Source of the DNA: Anaerolineales bacterium
GTDB lineage: Bacteria > Chloroflexota > Anaerolineae > Anaerolineales > Villigracilaceae
Direction of reading: 5' to 3'
Assembly: GCA_034433385.1 (NCBI GenBank)
Contig: DAOUAN010000154.1
Coordinates: 3,806 to 67,805 of the forward strand
DNA: 64,000 nt
Under the pieces are notes generated by a model. That model saw only the letters and a program-made list of their open reading frames with translations, was not told the origin of the DNA and did no database searches. Positions 14,342-49,268 of the stretch are shown here, one piece after another (position 1 is the first letter of the stretch; each line of letters starts with the position of its first letter). A program made the position numbers and the translations under genes.

Positions 14342-15311
14342 TCAGTTGTAATACTGCACTTTGGGGGGTGAAATCTTGTGCTGTGAGGCCGCCAGGAGTT
14401 CATCTACCGTGCTGATATGGTTTTTTACCGTGGTCGGATGGTAATGGATGTGCACGCGGCTCAAATTTGGAATGGAACGACACAGCAGATTTTCTACCTG
14501 AGAGGCGATTGCATCTCCCTCCCACACCGATAATGAGCCATCAATGCCAATCGTCAGGTTGATCACAATGTGAGGGCCAAAGCGATGCGCCTGCAATTCT
14601 TCCACTTGCTGAACCCCCGCTGTCGCCTGCAACAAATCCGAGATCTGTTGTGCCAGATCCCGGCTGGGGACGGCATCCATCAGCTCGACCGAGGATTCCC
14701 GCAAAATAGCGATTCCGGTTCGCAGAATCAGGATGGCGACCAGCGCCCCAGCCAGCGGATCTACCCAGGGGAGGCCGCGCTGACCGAGGAAAATCCCCAG
14801 CGAGGCGGCTGAGGCCGAAAGGACATCGTTGCGATGATCCTGAGCCAGTGCGTCTACAACCGGGTTGTGGGTTTGCTTCCCTAGCCGACGGACATAATAG
14901 GTCAAAAAAAGTTTGATGAGCACCGTCAGGAGAGCGATCCATAGGGCAATGTCGGCTGCTCCCTGCGATTCGATTTTCCCATCCAACAAATCCCAAACTT
15001 TGTCCACTGCATCCCAAAAAAACGGCGACGGCAGTCGTGACGATAAACGATCCTACCACCAGCGAGGCGATGCTTTCTAGTTGGCGATGGCCGTAGGGAT
15101 GTTCAACATCGGGCGGTTTATTTGCCAGACGGACAAAAATGGCCGCTACAACATAGTAAGCCACATCTGAGGTGGAATTAATCCCCTCGGCCAGCAGGGC
15201 CGGGCTATGACCAATGACGCCCGCGGTTGTCTTGATGAAGGAAAGGATGATGTTGATTACCAGACCAAGGTGAACCGCCAACAGGCTTTTCTGATCTCGC
15301 TCGTGGGTCAT
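14342..15311 (-). pseudogene. Cation diffusion facilitator (CDF) transporter, frameshifted at a homopolymer
   Basis: ORFs 14541-15368 (N-terminal TM region, GINSTSDVAYY...HPYGHRQLE) and 14342-15007 (C-terminal half) are two pieces of one CDF gene. Removing one base from the A7 run at 15016-15022 gives a continuous ...AVAVFWDAVDKVWDLL... Confidence 0.75.
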
Positions 15312-15430
15312 GGATAAGACTCCTGAACTCGATTTTATAATAGCCCGTTGGCGGTCGTAAATGGACAAATATCCTGTTTTATCTGTGCAGTCAAATCAAA
15401 AATATGACGGGATTTGTCAGGCCGGTTGTG

Positions 15431-17368
15431 TCAATCCATGCCGTCTTCTGCTCGCAAAATATGCCCAAATAGGGGTGAGGGTTCTCCAACAGAGCTGAGC
15501 GCCTTGCTTTTTTGAGACCCAGGAATCTCATATTGCTGGCGGGCAAGGTATATGAATAGGAATTCAAATAGATTTTCGCGATAAGCACTATCCTCAGCAA
15601 TAAAAGAGACACCTAATTGCAATGAGTCGGATGACATCTTGTTTTTGCGGTGAATGTTTTTGAGAGGCAGAACAATGCATTTCCCCGTCGGCGTATCGAA
15701 GTGCAGGGCCAGTTTTCCATGTGCCTCAGGGAAAGAGTGCTTGACTTTTAAGCCAGCGCCGCTAATGGAGATATCGGTGATTTCAACCTTTGTCAGCAGT
15801 TTTGAATGCTCGAGGTCGTATAAATCGCCCTGGATATAAGCAGGGAAGCGATATTGTTTGCGCTCGTGGGGTTTTTTCAAAATTTCTCGTACCGCGGTCA
15901 GGATAATATAAGCATTGTAGGATGCCCAGAAGAGTGCAATAGAAGCGTTGGTTGGGCTATTTTGTGCCAATGCCCCATGGTGGGTGATCATCTCAGAAAG
16001 CCCATAGATGATTGCCCCGATGAGCACCCCTAAAATGACCATGTAGGAGCGTAAGGCTTTTCTCTCTTTGGCATAGACCGAATCATCCACAGATTTAGGG
16101 GTCACTTTGAATTTGAGCGGCCGGCTGAAGATCAGGGTCAGGGTGGATTGAATGAAGACGATCATCTTGAGAATGTTATATTTTTCCGTCTGGAAATAAC
16201 GGAAATAGCCGCGCCCGCCAACCTGATTGGCCAGAATGTTCAGTAAGAAGTATGGCGTCCAGTGAAGGATAAAAGGCAAAGCCTCTATCTGCATAGGGAA
16301 GATGCCACCAAGCAAAATCAAAAGCGGGGTCAGAATGAGGATCAGTTTCTGGAAAGACTCAAAATAGGCCAGAAAACTGGCAAGATAAGAGAGCCGTTGC
16401 CCCAGCGTGAGGCCGGGAATCCACAATGGGCTTTCCTTGCTGCGATAGAGCTGCATTGTTCCCTGCGCCCAGCGAAGCCGTTGAAGCAAGAAGGCCTGAA
16501 TGGTCTGGGGAGCGATACCGTAAGCAAGTTCTTCGTTCAAGAAATAGGTTGACCAGCCGCGGCTGTGCAGGCGCACGGAGGTGTGAATGTCCTCGGTGAT
16601 TGTCTCGGTGGCAACTCCGCCCACCGACTCGATCGCTTTTCGACGCACAATGGATGGGCTACCGCACCAGAAGGCGCTGTTTGAGTGATTTTTCCCTGGC
16701 TGAATCACTCGGAAGAAGAGGGATTGTTCATGCCAATCTCTGCGTTTCTTATCGTGTTGGATCGAATCGTGGTTATAAAATTCTTGCGGCAGCTGAATGA
16801 GAGCCAGATTCTCATCTTCAAAGTAGCCTAAGGTTCGTTCGATGAAATCAGGCTGGGGAACCATGTCCGCATCCAGGATGACGATGAACTCGCCATCGGT
16901 ATGCTGAAGGGCGTAGTTGATATTCCCCGCTTTGGCATGTTCGTTGGTGGGACGAGTAAGATAATAGCAACCGAGGCGTTCTGCCAACTGTTTGACAGAT
17001 TCCCTGCGACCGTCATCCAGAACATAGGTTTTATGTGGGTAGCGAATGTTTTTACAGCCCACCATGGTAGCTTCGAGAATTTCTAAATCTTCATTGTAAG
17101 TGGGGATAAAAACATCCACACGGATGCCGGGCCTGGGTGGTACATAGGAGCGGGTGGGAGAAATATCCTGGGTGAGCCAGGAGAACAAAATGTAACTGAG
17201 CACTCCAAAGGCCTCTGCTCCCCATAACAGCCATGAAAAGAAGGGCACAACGGGGTTCAGCGTGTACTCGGCGCGCCACCACAAGTAATAGAGCAGATAG
17301 ATGATTGATACGATTGAAATCACCTTAATGTAGGTAGATTGATCGAAAAGTTTGTTGATCTTTTTCAT
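15431..17368 (-). CDS. Processive GT2 polysaccharide synthase (cellulose-synthase-like) with a C-terminal PilZ domain
   Basis: GT2 motifs YVLDDGRR, ILDADMVP, TEDIHTSVRLH and QRLRWAQG (QxxRW). TM segments flank the catalytic domain. The PilZ signature is RKQYR (RxxxR) ... DISISG (DxSxxG). Confidence 0.85.
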   Translation of the reverse strand: MKKINKLFDQSTYIKVISIVSIIYLLYYLWWRAEYTLNPVVPFFSWLLWGAEAFGVLSYILFSWLTQDISPTRSYVPPRPGIRVDVFIPTYNEDLEILEATMVGCKNIRYPHKTYVLDDGRRESVKQLAERLGCYYLTRPTNEHAKAGNINYALQHTDGEFIVILDADMVPQPDFIERTLGYFEDENLALIQLPQEFYNHDSIQHDKKRRDWHEQSLFFRVIQPGKNHSNSAFWCGSPSIVRRKAIESVGGVATETITEDIHTSVRLHSRGWSTYFLNEELAYGIAPQTIQAFLLQRLRWAQGTMQLYRSKESPLWIPGLTLGQRLSYLASFLAYFESFQKLILILTPLLILLGGIFPMQIEALPFILHWTPYFLLNILANQVGGRGYFRYFQTEKYNILKMIVFIQSTLTLIFSRPLKFKVTPKSVDDSVYAKERKALRSYMVILGVLIGAIIYGLSEMITHHGALAQNSPTNASIALFWASYNAYIILTAVREILKKPHERKQYRFPAYIQGDLYDLEHSKLLTKVEITDISISGAGLKVKHSFPEAHGKLALHFDTPTGKCIVLPLKNIHRKNKMSSDSLQLGVSFIAEDSAYRENLFEFLFIYLARQQYEIPGSQKSKALSSVGEPSPLFGHILRAEDGMD

Positions 17369-25520: not shown

Positions 25521-26102
25521 TTAATCTTTGACCAGCGAGAGAAAGTATTCGTGGAAGCGTGGATCAGGGGTTAACTCCGGATGAAAAGAAGTTGCCAGCA
25601 ATTTTCCCTGGCGTGCTGCGACGATACGTCCGTCGGGAAGGGTGGCGAGGGGATAAGCCGGCGTACTGACGCTTTCAATGAGCGGAGCGCGGATGAAGAC
25701 GGCGCGATAAGGCGCTTCGGTGTGGGTGGCAGATTTCAGTTCGGGAATATCCAGGTCCACTTCAAAGGATGCCACCTGTCGCCCAAAGGCATTTCGCTCG
25801 ACAGTGATGTCCATGATGCCGAGCAGAGGCTGATTGCGCCGGGCATCTTTGGAGAGAAAAATAGCGCCGGCGCAGGTGCCCCAAATGGCATGTGTTTTGC
25901 TAAATTCACGCAGTGGCTCCATCAAGCCAAAATCTACGGCCAGTTTGCCAATGGTGGTAGATTCACCGCCAGGGATGATGAGGCCATCCAGCCCGTCGAG
26001 GTGGCGCGGAAGGCGCACTTCGGCGGTCTCAACGCCGAGGCGCTTAAGCATGGCAATATGTTCGGCGAAATCGCCCTGAATAGCAAGGACTCCAATTTTC
26101 AT
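25521..26102 (-). CDS. pdxT: Pyridoxal 5-prime-phosphate synthase, glutaminase subunit
   Basis: MKIGVLAIQGDFAEH, GGESTT, WGTCAGAIFL and SFHPELT. Confidence 0.92.
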   Translation of the reverse strand: MKIGVLAIQGDFAEHIAMLKRLGVETAEVRLPRHLDGLDGLIIPGGESTTIGKLAVDFGLMEPLREFSKTHAIWGTCAGAIFLSKDARRNQPLLGIMDITVERNAFGRQVASFEVDLDIPELKSATHTEAPYRAVFIRAPLIESVSTPAYPLATLPDGRIVAARQGKLLATSFHPELTPDPRFHEYFLSLVKD

Positions 26103-26160
26103 AGTGTAGACCGTAGACGATGGACGGTGGACGGTCTATGGTCTACCGTCTACCGTCCAT
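26103..26160. repeat. Heptad-periodic palindromic repeat element (copy A), filling the pdxS-pdxT spacer
   Basis: GTAGACC GTAGACG ATGGACG GTGGACG | GTCTATG GTCTACC GTCTACC GTCCATG: four heptads followed by four heptads of the complementary type. ATGGACGGTGGAC can pair with GTCTACCGTCCAT. Confidence 0.75.
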
Positions 26161-26164
26161 GAGC

Positions 26165-27052
26165 TCACCATCCCCGCCCGGCGATCTTCTCGACCTCGGG
26201 CATGGTGGCAATGCTGCGGCCGACCATCGGTTCGCCCAGATTCTTGCTGACCTCGGCCAGAATGGCGGGATCGTTGTAATGGGTCACGGCTTTGACGATG
26301 GCCGCGGCGCGGCGCGCCGGATCGCCCGATTTGAAAATCCCGGAACCGACAAAGACGCCGTCCATGCCCAGCTGCATCATTAAAGCTGCGTCGGCAGGAG
26401 TAGCGATACCACCTGCAGCAAAGTTGACCACCGGCAGACGCCCCAGTTCTTTGGTTTCCTTTACCAGTTCAAACGGCGCACCAATGGATTTGGCATAGGC
26501 CATCAATTCTTCATCGGGCATGTTTTGCAGGCGCCGAATTTCACCCATCACCGCGCGGGCATGACGCACAGCCTCGACCACATCACCGGTGCCGGCTTCG
26601 CCTTTGGTGCGGATCATCGCCGCTCCCTCGCCGATACGGCGCAGGGCCTCGCCCAGGTTGCGTGCACCACACACAAAGGGCACTTTGAAGGCGTGTTTGT
26701 AAATATGATGTTCTTCATCGGCGGGAGTTAACACTTCAGATTCGTCAATGTAGTCAACGCCGATGGCTTCGAGAATTTGGGCTTCAACAAAGTGCCCGAT
26801 GCGGCATTTTGCCATCACCGGAATAGAGACCGCGTCCATAATCTTGAGAATCAGTTCCGGATCCGACATGCGCGCTACGCCCCCCTGGGCACGAATATCT
26901 GCCGGGACGCGCTCTAACGCCATCACTGCGCAGGCGCCAGCGTCTTCTGCAATTTTGGCGTGTTCAGGGGTGACAACGTCCATGATGACGCCCCCCTTGA
27001 GCATTTGTGCCAATCCCTTTTTTACCGCAAAAGTACCAGTTTGGGCTTCCAT
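26165..27052 (-). CDS. pdxS: Pyridoxal 5-prime-phosphate synthase, lyase subunit
   Basis: [16 protein letters not shown]...[17 protein letters not shown]...[15 protein letters not shown]. The start is set at MEAQTG (ATG 27052), preceded by AAGGAG. Confidence 0.95.
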
Positions 27053-27264: not shown

Positions 27265-27319
27265 TTGACATTTTCTGTTTGTTTGTGTACAATGATACAA
27301 AGATACAATGATACAATAT
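27265..27319 (+). promoter_or_regulatory. Promoter of the GntR gene, with four tandem TACAA(T/A)GA octamers
   Basis: TTGACA (27265-27270), a 17-nt spacer, then TACAAT (27288-27293). The octamers TACAATGA TACAAAGA TACAATGA TACAATAT run up to the ATG at 27318. No SD is visible. Confidence 0.55.
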
Positions 27320-27713
27320 GGTCATGAAAATTGAACTTGATTTCCGTTCCCCTATCTCGCTGACGGAGCAGATTGTTGAGCAAATCCGTCACCAAATTGC
27401 CAGTGGTGTGCTTAACCCAGGCGAACAATTGCCCACAGTACGTTCGCTGGCAACTGAATTGCGCATCAATTTCAACACGGTGGCGCGGGCGTATCGCATT
27501 CTGGATGAGATGGGTCTCATCTCCACTCAGCAAGGCCGCGGCACGTATGTAACTGAGATCCCACCGCCAGAGAGCGGCGAGAAATTGCGCCGAGAAACGC
27601 TGGATGCGTTGACCCGGCGTTATCTCGATGAGGCCAGACAATTGGGCTTTTCAAAAAATGAGATTGAGCAAGTGGTCAGCAACCATCTCCAGAGTTGGAG
27701 TGAATCGAGGTAA
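27318..27713 (+). CDS. GntR family transcriptional regulator (short, YtrA-like)
   Basis: Winged HTH PGEQLPTVRSLATELRINFNTVARAYRILDEMGLISTQQGRGTYV with a short C-terminal domain (131 aa in total). Confidence 0.85.
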   Translation: MVMKIELDFRSPISLTEQIVEQIRHQIASGVLNPGEQLPTVRSLATELRINFNTVARAYRILDEMGLISTQQGRGTYVTEIPPPESGEKLRRETLDALTRRYLDEARQLGFSKNEIEQVVSNHLQSWSESR

Positions 27714-46102: not shown

Positions 46103-46103
46103 G

Positions 46104-46138
46104 GTTCAGTATTCAGTATTCAGTGTTCAGTGGTCAGT
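46104..46138. repeat. Tandem heptamer array (5 x RTTCAGT)
   Basis: GTTCAGT ATTCAGT ATTCAGT GTTCAGT GGTCAGT. On the mRNA strand these are ACTGAAY units, each carrying a TGA. The array spans the last four pyrF codons, the pyrF stop and nearly all of the 24-nt spacer before the permease ATG. Confidence 0.8.
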
Positions 46139-46996
46139 GGGAGGGCGGAGGGCGAGAATCTGGTCGCGCAATTCGGCCGCGGCCTGACCGGGATTTTCGG
46201 CGCGCGAGATGCCGCGCGAGACGTTGATGAGCAGCCCATTGCCGTCTGCCCGCAGGCCGAGGCGGAGGGCGGTCTCCAGGTCGCCGCCCTGGGCGCCGAC
46301 GCCGGGGACGAGGAACCACAAATCCGGCGCAGCGGCGCGGAGGCGGGCGAGGGCTTCGGGGTGTGTCGCCCCGACCACCAGGCCGAGGTTGTTGCCGGTA
46401 TTCCATTGTTGGGCAAGATAGGCAACATGCTCATACAAGAGAACAGACCCTGGACGGTGGACCGTTGACTGTGGGTCATCAACTGCTGTCCACTGTCCAC
46501 GGTCTACGGTCAGGTCTTGCAAATCACCCGCCCCGGGGTTGCTCGTCTTGCAGAGCAGGAAGACGCCCTTGCGCGGGTTTTGCAGGAACGGCTCGACCGC
46601 GTCGCGGCCCAGGTAGGGATTGACGGTGAGCGCGTCCGCGCCGAGGGTCTCGAAGGCGGCGCGGGCGTAGGCCTCGGCCGTGGAGGCGATGTCGCCGCGC
46701 TTGGCGTCCAGAATGACGGGAATCTGCGACCCGAGGCGGGCCGATTCGGCATGGACGGCATCAATCACATCCTTGAGCGCCGTCCAGCCCGCCGCGCCGA
46801 AGACCTCGAAGAAGGCCGCGTTGGGCTTGAAGGCCGCGGCGTAGGGAGCGGTCTGTTTCACGAGATTCAGGCAGAAATCCCGCGCCGCATCGGCGCTGGG
46901 GGCGGGGAGATCGCCCGGGTGCGGGTCGAGGCCGACGCAGAGGAGCGAGGCGCAGTCGTCCACCCGCTTTTCGAGGAGGGTGAAGAAGGTTTCCAT
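46127..46996 (-). CDS. pyrF: Orotidine 5-prime-phosphate decarboxylase (type 2), with a repeat-derived in-frame segment
   Basis: LCVGLDPHP, ILDAKRGDIASTA, KTSNPGAGDLQDL and VPGVGAQGG. Confidence 0.85.
   Translation of the reverse strand: METFFTLLEKRVDDCASLLCVGLDPHPGDLPAPSADAARDFCLNLVKQTAPYAAAFKPNAAFFEVFGAAGWTALKDVIDAVHAESARLGSQIPVILDAKRGDIASTAEAYARAAFETLGADALTVNPYLGRDAVEPFLQNPRKGVFLLCKTSNPGAGDLQDLTVDRGQWTAVDDPQSTVHRPGSVLLYEHVAYLAQQWNTGNNLGLVVGATHPEALARLRAAAPDLWFLVPGVGAQGGDLETALRLGLRADGNGLLINVSRGISRAENPGQAAAELRDQILALRPPTDH
46450..46512. repeat. Heptad-periodic palindromic repeat element (copy C) inside the pyrF coding sequence
   Basis: Nine heptads: CTGGACG GTGGACC GTTGACT GTGGGTC ATCAACT GCTGTCC ACTGTCC ACGGTCT ACGGTCA. 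That is 63 nt, or 21 codons. It encodes most of LTVDRGQWTAVDDPQSTVHRP (22 codons, of which the element covers 21). Confidence 0.65.
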
Positions 46997-47010: not shown

Positions 47011-47094
47011 GACGGTGGACAGTAGACGGTAGACGGTGGACCTTTTACCATCTATGCTCTACGGTCTACGGTCTATGGTCTACGGTCTATGGTC
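47011..47094. repeat. Heptad-periodic palindromic repeat element (copy D), filling the pyrB-pyrF spacer
   Basis: GACGGTG GACAGTA GACGGTA GACGGTG, a spacer, then CTCTACG GTCTACG GTCTATG GTCTACG GTCTATG GTCA. The right end abuts the pyrB stop codon (47093-47095). Confidence 0.8.
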
Positions 47095-48164: not shown

Positions 48165-49268
48165 TTATTGCCAGCATTCCAGTTGTTCGAAGGGCTCAGG
48201 GCGCTGTTCACGGAGATTGAGGCCAAAGCCGGCGGGGACGAGGATCTGCCCATCGCGGTAGGCCTCGCGGCCGCGCAAGACGACACGAATCACGCGACCC
48301 CGTGCCGGCCAGCCCTCGAAGGGCGTCCAGCCACACTTTGAGTGCAACTCGCTCGCCCGAATCTCCCAACGGGCGTTCTCATCTATCTCGATCCAGGTTT
48401 CGGGCTGTTCGGGGAGCGAGAAAATTCTGCGGGGATTGACCACACATTTCTGAATAATATCGTCTACCGTCAACCGTCCATCGTCCGATGCTGTGAGCAG
48501 GAGAGGAAGCATCGTCTCCAGGCCGGGGAAGCCGGGCGGCGGGTTCTCGCCGTCCTTTTCGGCCAGGGTGTGCGGGGCGTGGTCAGTGGCAAAGCAATCA
48601 ATGACATCGAGATTCTGCCAGAGGGCGTCCACATCGGCCTGGCAGGCCAACCGCGGGCGGACTTCGCCGCGGCCGGGGTGTCCGTGCGAGAGGGCGGGGA
48701 TGTTATCGGCGGTCAGGAAGAGATGGTGCGGCGTCACCTCGCAGGTGACTTTCACGCCGCGGGCTTTGGCCTCGCGGATGAGCAGAATCTCCTCGCGCAG
48801 GGAGACGTGAGCGATGTGAACAGGTTGATCGAACATCTGCGAGAAGGCCAGGGCGGCGGCCATGCTGCGGCTCTCGGCGTGGACGACGATGGGGCCGGGG
48901 CCACGCCAACGGCGGAAATGATCCAGCCACAGGGTCATGTCGTTCAGGCGTAGTTCGCCAAAGGTGGAGTCGAGGTACATTTTCAAGGCGGCAGCGTAGG
49001 GGGCCAGAGAGGCAACCTCGGCGGCGTTTTCGGGGCCGGCGCCGAGGTATTGGGCGTAGTCACACCGCGCCTTTGAACGAGCCGCTTCCAGGGCCGAATC
49101 GAGGGTGAATTGGTCGAAGATCGGCGGTTTGGTGTTGGGCATGGCGAGAATGGTGGTCACTCCGCCAGCGAGGGCGGCCTGGGTGGCGGTATCCCAGTCT
49201 TCCTTGTGGGTCTGACCGGGTTCGCGCACGTGGACGTGGGGGTCAATCAGTCCGGGAAGTCTCATCAT
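48165..49268 (-). CDS. pyrC: Dihydroorotase
   Basis: GLIDPHVHVREPG metal-binding motif with downstream conserved His/Asp (DHAPH). The start is set at ATG-ATG 49268/49265. The ORF-track start at 49307 is a TTG inside the leader terminator. Confidence 0.88.
   Translation of the reverse strand: MMRLPGLIDPHVHVREPGQTHKEDWDTATQAALAGGVTTILAMPNTKPPIFDQFTLDSALEAARSKARCDYAQYLGAGPENAAEVASLAPYAAALKMYLDSTFGELRLNDMTLWLDHFRRWRGPGPIVVHAESRSMAAALAFSQMFDQPVHIAHVSLREEILLIREAKARGVKVTCEVTPHHLFLTADNIPALSHGHPGRGEVRPRLACQADVDALWQNLDVIDCFATDHAPHTLAEKDGENPPPGFPGLETMLPLLLTASDDGRLTVDDIIQKCVVNPRRIFSLPEQPETWIEIDENARWEIRASELHSKCGWTPFEGWPARGRVIRVVLRGREAYRDGQILVPAGFGLNLREQRPEPFEQLECWQ

Follow-up and report, generated by a model that had tools for sequence, protein, structure and literature searches.

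Heptanucleotide tandem repeats have been known from cyanobacteria since about 1990 and were later found in Xanthomonas and Geobacter; the cyanobacterial repeats STRR1-3 have the consensus units CCCCAGT, TTGGTCA and CAACAGT. To our knowledge, the origin and function of such repeats are still unexplained. REP/BIME elements are thought to affect mRNA stability, and the PF05635 protein, the 23S-rRNA intervening-sequence (IVS) protein, is a four-helix bundle. Many bacteria have an excess of heptameric SSRs, for which polymerase slippage has been put forward as the cause (Mrazek 2007, as cited in PMC4692102). Xanthomonas has ~186 GGGAATC loci, including inverted pairs, at conserved positions but with variable length, and Nostoc carries the heptamer GGGGA(C/T)T (PMC4692102). 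In Geobacter metallireducens, repeat families consist of four to five hepta- or octanucleotides in tandem, both within and between genes and often as opposed pairs (PMC2700814), with heptamer units such as GGACCGG and MTYCTGA; inverted heptamer pairs able to form stem-loops are also on record (PMC4692102, PMC2700814). The IVS of Coxiella has tandem GACAGAT heptamers, in a number that varies between strains, upstream of the S23p ORF, and its stem is cut by RNase III (PMC4990558). The locus described here, the spacer between pdxS and pdxT in a member of the Anaerolineales, extends the class of heptanucleotide repeats to Chloroflexota in a well-defined form.

The pdxS-pdxT element and its sister copies

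The window, which is the whole 64,000-nt stretch of DNA analysed, corresponds to C154:3806-67805 of a 3.14-Mb assembly (G000) in 189 contigs with 56.8% G+C. The features discussed below are listed in Table 1. On the plus strand, the repeat block at 26106-26161 consists of four GTRGACS units (GTAGACC GTAGACG ATGGACG GTGGACG) followed by four SGTCYAC units (GTCTATG GTCTACC GTCTACC GTCCATG), and only 3 nt of spacer remain on each side. An earlier note on this DNA had described an element of 58 nt exactly filling the spacer; its eight units, four and four complementary, are all present, but the block is 56 nt long and nearly, not exactly, fills the 62 nt available. The note's long hairpin with a mismatch at every seventh position is likewise right in that mismatches are regularly spaced, although not every unit has a mismatch at its seventh-position S. 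The two-unit motif GTRGACSGTRGACS, with up to two mismatches allowed, has 20 matches in the window compared to 2.3 +/- 1.6 after shuffling (0 of 100 shuffles reach 20), confirming the heptad-repeat palindrome. All but one of the matches lie in the pdx spacer, at 46450-46507, at 47015-47090 or at 48461-48481, so the two related copies that had been pointed out (47011-47094, and 46450-46512 in pyrF) are real. A genome-wide search for arrays, tabulated against genes as the note had proposed, returned 32 loci of the GTRGACS family in the 3.1-Mb MAG.

Table 1. Coordinates of the pdxS-pdxT element, its neighbouring genes and its copies in the window.
Feature	Position	Strand	Evidence
pdxT, glutamine amidotransferase subunit of PLP synthase	25521-26102	-	ORF call; Pfam SNO 1.5e-58
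pdxS, PLP synthase subunit	26165-27052	-	Pfam SOR_SNZ 1.3e-112
pdxS-pdxT spacer, 62 nt, of which 56 nt are heptamer units	26103-26164	-	sequence and ORF calls
Hairpin 5' arm, G-rich, mRNA CAUGGAC GGUAGAC GGUAGAC CAUAGAC (four SGTCYAC units on the plus strand)	26134-26161	-	sequence, fold, motif scan
Hairpin 3' arm, C-rich, mRNA CGUCCAC CGUCCAU CGUCUAC GGUCUAC (four GTRGACS units on the plus strand)	26106-26133	-	sequence, fold, motif scan
Sister copy filling the pyrB-pyrF spacer, 4 + 5 units	47011-47094	-	repeat scan; Pfam of flanking genes
Sister copy in frame as a pyrF loop (TVDRGQWTAVDDPQSTVHRPGS)	46450-46512	-	translation, Pfam
One-armed copy, 3 units, inside an amidohydrolase-like ORF	48461-48486	-	motif scan, Pfam

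The two arms are inverted repeats predicted to form a long stem on both strands, with a loop of ~9 nt and with the unit family and polarity of the hairpins beside the PF05635 gene on contig C124 (see below). The predicted fold of the sense RNA has a free energy of -33.1 kcal/mol (z -2.75), and that of the opposite strand -33.8 kcal/mol (z -4.1). The spacers of 67 relatives show no asymmetry either, with sense folding stronger in 39 and antisense folding stronger in 27 (p = 0.37). Since both strands fold equally well, nothing points to selection acting on the transcript strand, and selection at the RNA level was rejected. Identity with a known RNA family or a terminator was also rejected: no Rfam family reaches its gathering threshold at the element (the best, a miRNA hairpin model, scores 28.7 bits against 56), and no intrinsic terminator was called, the hairpin being followed by ACACUAUGAAAAUUGG without a U run.

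The pdxS stop codon, TGA at 26165-26167, lies within the outer helix of the predicted fold, and the pdxT ATG at 26100-26102 has no Shine-Dalgarno-like run 5' of it. Measured through the predicted helix, the path from stop to start is 7 nt in the window compared to 36 nt for shuffled spacers; across 68 spacers (the 67 relatives and the window) the median is 17.5 nt compared to 29 nt (p = 5e-8). In the modelled folds this short path is the geometry that translational coupling would need; it does not by itself argue that the hairpin was selected for that purpose.

Across the genome, 17 of the 32 loci are palindromic, all of them with the GTRGACS array ahead of the SGTCYAC array, so that the G-rich arm is always 5'; this order reads the same on either strand, and the reverse arrangement has 0 cases. 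Fifteen of the 32 loci lie within ORFs, for example as the pyrF loop or as linkers behind lipoprotein-type signal peptides, and one-armed arrays also occur. Nine palindromic copies sit between same-strand genes with at least one end no more than 18 nt from a neighbouring stop or start, and in five of these both ends do so, as judged from crude gene calls. The region C124:12559-16735 has GTRGACS/SGTCYAC hairpins filling four operon spacers in a row, and a PF05635 gene (15295-15711) lies between two of these hairpins.

The family is one of several. Among TRF periods that are not multiples of three, period 7 has the most arrays in this genome (187, compared to 111 for period 8 and 112 for period 10), and period-7 loci by TRF number 190. 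Further unit families are GGACGGT/ACCGTCC, GCAGAAT/GCAGAAG, GATTTTN, nnnCAGT, ATTGGTA and TGAGGCG, so that many dispersed loci and several families coexist in one genome. Period-7 structure is present in ~4% of all co-directional spacers of 40-160 nt. Single arrays on C46 grade from CCGTCCA through CTGTCCA to CTGAACA and CTGATCA. Clusters of heptamer arrays also occur at C99:28.9-49 kb, C111:82-91 kb and C6:2-6 kb, and a different palindrome family, CAGACTTCCGAAGTCTnnnAGACTTCGGAAGTCTG, lies mostly between convergent genes (for example C78:449-525, C57:20263-20323, C137:53255-53317). Several contigs end in heptamer arrays (C84:3237-3304, C85:6-73, C51:1-44, C177:1-36), with the end of C84 and the start of C85 being mutual reverse complements. 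Since the repeats break the assembly, the copy counts are lower bounds.

Other arrays adjoin or enter coding sequence. Five (G/A)TTCAGT heptamers, another unit family, occupy 46103-46140 of the window between pyrF and a gene for a CitMHS-type permease; the pyrF stop codon lies inside this array, and the permease ATG follows 1-2 nt past it without a Shine-Dalgarno sequence. The pyrF loop between DLQDL and LYEHVA has 6 aa in some relatives and up to ~37 aa in others (L081-L160), and the inserts resemble translated repeat elements of several families. On the minus strand at C108:7722-7910 and C167:5717-5915, a lipoprotein-type signal peptide (MRRPALLPLSLLILALLLTAC) is followed by a heptamer array as a would-be linker. 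These two loci are 84% identical across 204 nt, and copies of a mobile composite were considered; this was rejected, as they are paralogous lipoprotein-like N-termini with the array as the linker after the signal peptide. Repeats of this kind matter for annotation, since they break assemblies, add protein loops and linkers and supply stop codons.

Slippage and spacer exchange among relatives

The relatives recovered on the basis of PdxT are all Anaerolineales/Chloroflexota MAGs, the closest (L001) having a PdxT that is 94% identical. Across 79 species of Anaerolineales, nearly all pdxS-pdxT spacers are 45-140 nt long and palindromic, with a strong hairpin of whatever family in ~90%; in five species the spacer is just 5-15 nt. 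None of the 79 has a Shine-Dalgarno sequence before pdxT. The contents of the spacer are diverse, with period-7 arms of the GGACGGT, nnnCAGT, TTAGCnn or ATTGGTA type, period-8 arms of GTAGACAG/GTACACAG and AGACTATG, period-9 arms of GAGACTATT, a longer element GTCATTGCGAG..CTCGCAATGAC and, in ~10 relatives, classic GTAGGGGCGGG..CCCGCCCCTAC palindromes. A palindrome of 100-170 nt with the ends GTCATTGCGAGG..CCTCGCAATGAC and an inner hairpin GAAGCAATCTCC..GGAGATTGCTTC occupies the pdx spacers of L019, L031, L044 and L054; it also occurs in the spacers downstream of pdxT in L023, L029, L045, L048 and L052, and our genome has one copy (C137:34426-34530). In L069 (Chloroflexi bacterium RBG_16_57_11) the pdxS-pdxT spacer is 403 nt long and contains a small RidA/YjgF-like ORF.

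The window also has 8-9-nt repeats, ATTGTAT(C/A), upstream of pdxS at 27288-27317 (TACAATGA x 3.8, plus strand); the run adjoins a divergent GntR-family gene (27318-27713; Pfam GntR 3.4e-19). It recurs ~150-250 nt upstream of pdxS in ~50 of 80 loci (L001-L069). This run is likely an operator, and its sequence is conserved, unlike that of the pdxS-pdxT spacer.

Where the same array is found in related species, the number of units differs. The centre GTAGACCATAGACCGTCC is common to the window and to relatives L001 and L010, but unit numbers differ and the right arm of L010 has ~13 units. Two genomes of one genus with ~80-90% nucleotide identity (G084 and G071) have arrays at the same junctions, with ~10 units in the former and ~3 in the latter. 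Perfect three-unit GTRGACS runs number 187 in G084 and 7 in G071; given the shared junctions, this difference is largely expansion. Comparison of these sequences indicates that orthologous arrays gain and lose whole units by slippage.

The spacer can also be exchanged as a whole. Relatives L043 and L044 are 94% and 88% identical at third codon positions and 94% identical over 300 nt upstream. Their flanks diverge by 3-4%, yet they have nothing in common between the stop codon and the ATG, where a 71-nt GGAC-type heptamer hairpin in one stands opposite an unrelated palindrome of 136 nt in the other. On the PdxS+PdxT tree the unit families require 38 changes compared to 50.7 when shuffled, which amounts to weak clustering in which sister tips have often switched family. 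On these two grounds slow drift in place was rejected as the sole process. Slippage in place does occur, though not as the sole process. The idea of one unit family per species was also rejected, as many families occur in one genome and the same families recur across species.

By one TRF criterion, 7-9-nt arrays occur in 22 of the 79 pdxS-pdxT spacers and ~20 times in the rest of these loci (464 kb). The junction that follows, from pdxT to a conserved downstream gene, is a fairer control and covers 75 loci. Here 30 spacers are 0-26 nt long and many of the longer ones have palindromes of the same families, so operon junctions of this order are commonly occupied; occupancy is ~50%, compared to ~90% at the pdxS-pdxT junction. 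Three states are seen at this second junction: empty, hairpin only and, at two loci, a full cassette of 465-470 nt. The corresponding spacer in the window is ordinary, 39 nt long with a GGAGG.

Within the order the GTRGACS family is patchy, being found in 12 of 151 genomes; matches per genome range from 0 to 187. Beyond it, four-unit GTRGACS arrays were detected in Saprospiraceae, Lewinellaceae, Chitinophagales, Gemmatimonadota, Acidobacteriota and Planctomycetota and in a few isolates such as Gilvimarinus agarilyticus, as one-armed arrays or as inverted pairs with the polarity seen here. Because heptamer arrays are many and the space of possible units is small, the same unit in several phyla is by itself no proof of transfer. 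A phage vector was considered and rejected, as the family is rare in a collection of viral contigs, with only 16 matching stretches.

PF05635 genes and the origin of the element

The genome has five PF05635 genes (on contigs C124, C51, C177, C6 and C29). All five have arrays on both sides, in tandem units of 7-8 nt or 16 nt, compared to 21 of the 2820 other genes (Fisher p = 4e-11). Three of them (C51, C6 and C29) have a G-rich arm 5' of the ATG and, past the gene, a C-rich arm complementary to it. The arrays at C177, where the contig ends, do not complement each other. The copy at C124:15295-15711 (Pfam PF05635 7.9e-27; closest solved structure Xanthomonas XCC0516, PDB 2GSC, 9.6e-15) has a complete GTRGACS/SGTCYAC hairpin of the same family as the pdx element on each side. 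As these are two whole hairpins and not one arm per side, hairpins and gene might be independent tenants of the junctions.

PF05635 genes are likewise bracketed by arrays in L014, L048, L062 and L070. So are ~18 PF05635 loci with readable flanks in five other genomes (G084, G044, G108, G105, G039), and most of these have a positive GC skew upstream and a negative one downstream. For relatives in general, the G-rich arm precedes the gene and the C-rich arm follows it at most PF05635 loci with readable flanks. In G105, which has 75 matches to the GTRGACS family, such an array lies directly upstream of the PF05635 gene at two loci (L330, L342), and in a Planctomycetota MAG (L224:2650-3400) ~25 GGACGGT-type units precede a PF05635 gene that is followed by at least 25 ACCGTCC/ACTGTCC units. 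There are three PF05635 genes in G084 and none in its congener G071. G044 and G108 have PF05635 genes and lack GTRGACS arrays, so there is no one-to-one link to this particular unit. Hairpins without a gene share the polarity of the cassettes, with the G-rich arm first in 52 compared to 10 of the relatives' pdx spacers (p = 6e-9) and in 22 compared to 3 cases in our own genome. No PF05635 gene was found in the pdxS-pdxT spacer of any of the 79 relatives, so a cassette origin of the pdx copy is something we infer rather than see.

From these comparisons, the pdx element is probably a gene-less, STRR-like heptamer hairpin, the kind of structure that serves as stem in IVS cassettes, placed at a translationally coupled junction. 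It would be a cassette stem minus its gene, the ORF having been lost or never having arrived, and it would have inserted at a once-tight junction between the pdxS stop and the pdxT start. After insertion the arms would gain or lose whole units through replication slippage, and now and then the whole spacer would be exchanged. In the pdxST mRNA, an imperfect helix of ~25 pairs is predicted to loop the insert out and to leave stop and start a few nt apart; we propose that pdxT, which has no Shine-Dalgarno sequence, can for this reason still be translated by coupling. The analogy with IVS stems makes RNase III cleavage of the helix plausible, and the genome has a gene for this enzyme. For the pdxST message the element may be a neutral insert that is looped out, an RNase III site or a stabiliser. 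Several observations count against the cassette-stem reading, namely the one-armed and intragenic arrays (15 of 32 loci), which plain SSR dynamics can explain without a cassette, the double hairpins at C124, the 79 pdx spacers without a PF05635 gene and the equal folding of both strands.

The explanation by plain SSR dynamics holds that the arrays are long SSRs that arise and turn over by polymerase slippage, with hairpin-templated strand switching producing the palindromes; there would be no mobile origin and no partner protein, and nearness to PF05635 would reflect shared permissive junctions. It fits the unit numbers that differ at orthologous sites (the window, L001 and L010; G084 and G071), the graded arrays of C46, the many one-armed and intragenic arrays and the slippage proposed for over-represented heptameric SSRs (PMC4692102, in its citation of Mrazek 2007). 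We nevertheless regard it as unlikely, since the arrays flank five of five PF05635 genes (p = 4e-11), the units come from a restricted vocabulary that recurs across loci and species, the polarity is fixed at 17:0, the L043/L044 spacer was wholly replaced at 3-4% divergence of the flanks and the same GGACGGT arms surround a PF05635 gene in Planctomycetota contig L224. A selected cis-regulatory RNA of the pdxST operon, acting as a stabiliser of the upstream cistron, as a processing site or as a device that sets the PdxS:PdxT ratio, would agree with the ~90% of 79 relatives that have a strong hairpin, compared to about half at the pdxT-to-next-gene junction, with a helix that draws stop and start together and with a pdxT that lacks a Shine-Dalgarno sequence throughout. 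Since any palindrome could serve, its sequence would be free to change. This account is quite improbable to us: five relatives cope with spacers of 5-15 nt, the sense strand has no folding advantage (39 compared to 27, p = 0.37), the same elements occur in ORFs and between unrelated genes, and there is neither a terminator tail nor an Rfam family.

Least probable is a REP/BIME-type element, for which a RAYT (Y1 transposase) would recognise the GTAG of each unit and multiply the copies. The copies are palindromic and dispersed and have GTAG/CTAC in their units, close relatives have different elements at the same site, and GTAGGGGCGGG..CCCGCCCCTAC palindromes occupy the same spacer in ~10 relatives. 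Against this, Y1_Tnp (PF01797) genes are present in 110 of the 151 genomes of the order without relation to the number of arrays, and G084, with 187 array matches, has one weak Y1 match, in a 635-aa ORF that is also present in G071. In our genome the spacer next to the RAYT-like Y1_Tnp gene at C25:10876-11217 (region C25:10876-11389) has short, unrelated hairpins and no heptamers, and other unit families lack GTAG. Dependence on a RAYT was rejected for lack of correlation; no cognate RAYT flanked by the same repeats was found. To return to the cassette-stem reading, a bolder extension of it makes heptamer inverted arrays the cis sites of a cassette system that is widespread and lacks a transposase, in which an Avd-like PF05635 pentamer would recognise the 7-nt repeats and promote insertion or copying at stop/start junctions, solo hairpins being non-autonomous copies maintained or multiplied in trans. 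We consider this rather unlikely; if true, it would provide a mechanism for the long-unexplained heptamer repeats of bacteria, STRR and its relatives included.

Comparison with known systems

Likeness to cyanobacterial STRR, which the earlier note had suggested, holds for organisation. Like STRR and heptameric SSRs in general, the pdx family consists of 7-nt units in tandem and shares its genome with other such families; loci number in the tens to hundreds, most of them intergenic, and orthologous sites in related species have arrays of unequal length, as seen between the window and L001/L010 and between G084 and G071. The STRR host is cyanobacterial and its units follow the STRR1-3 consensus, while here the host belongs to the Anaerolineales (Chloroflexota) and the unit is GTRGACS; in sequence, solely the nnnCAGT family of our genome resembles STRR units. 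The second likeness that the note had drawn, to REP/BIME, stands for the palindromic form and falls for the rest, as Y1/RAYT genes do not track the arrays. REP/BIME of enterobacteria and pseudomonads are, like the pdx copies, short palindromes between operon genes that are unlike even in close relatives at conserved positions. They are extragenic and consist of a unique palindrome with a RAYT; the pdx family, palindromic and multi-copy too, has arms made of tandem repeats, no RAYT association and 15 of 32 loci in ORFs. We found no description of heptamer repeats of such type in Anaerolineae in the searchable literature, in line with the note, which knew of none for this lineage; the PF05635 cassette link and the spread across phyla are additions to it.

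With Rickettsia palindromic elements the family shares in-frame translated sister copies within genes, for example the pyrF loop. Rickettsia palindromic elements are not built of tandem heptamers, and the pdxS-pdxT copy is intergenic. The 23S rRNA IVS with an S23p/PF05635 ORF (Leptospira, Coxiella burnetii, Xanthomonas) shares the inverted-repeat stem that encloses a PF05635 gene in full copies and, in Coxiella, tandem heptamers of variable number in the 5' arm (PMC4990558). IVS sit in a helix of 23S rRNA, whereas the pdx element lies between the protein-coding genes pdxS and pdxT with a loop of ~9 nt and no ORF; PF05635 ORFs are instead found at its sister loci on C124, C51, C177, C6 and C29. 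The IVS stem is an RNase III substrate (PMC4990558), and for the pdx element such cleavage is an analogy.

The kind of repeat itself is already recorded for Nostoc, Xanthomonas and Geobacter (PMC4692102, PMC2700814). Most intergenic copies here, unlike STRR and the Xanthomonas and Geobacter repeats, are inverted pairs that have a fixed polarity and fill stop-to-start spacers. The arrays next to PF05635 genes are a further difference, as neither PMC4692102 nor PMC2700814 connects the Nostoc, Xanthomonas or Geobacter repeats with these genes. The pdx locus combines the fixed polarity of inverted arms filling a coupled junction, slippage at orthologous sites, wholesale replacement of the spacer between near-identical relatives and a statistically strong association with PF05635 genes, which have the same repeats as arms; this association is seen in Planctomycetota as well.
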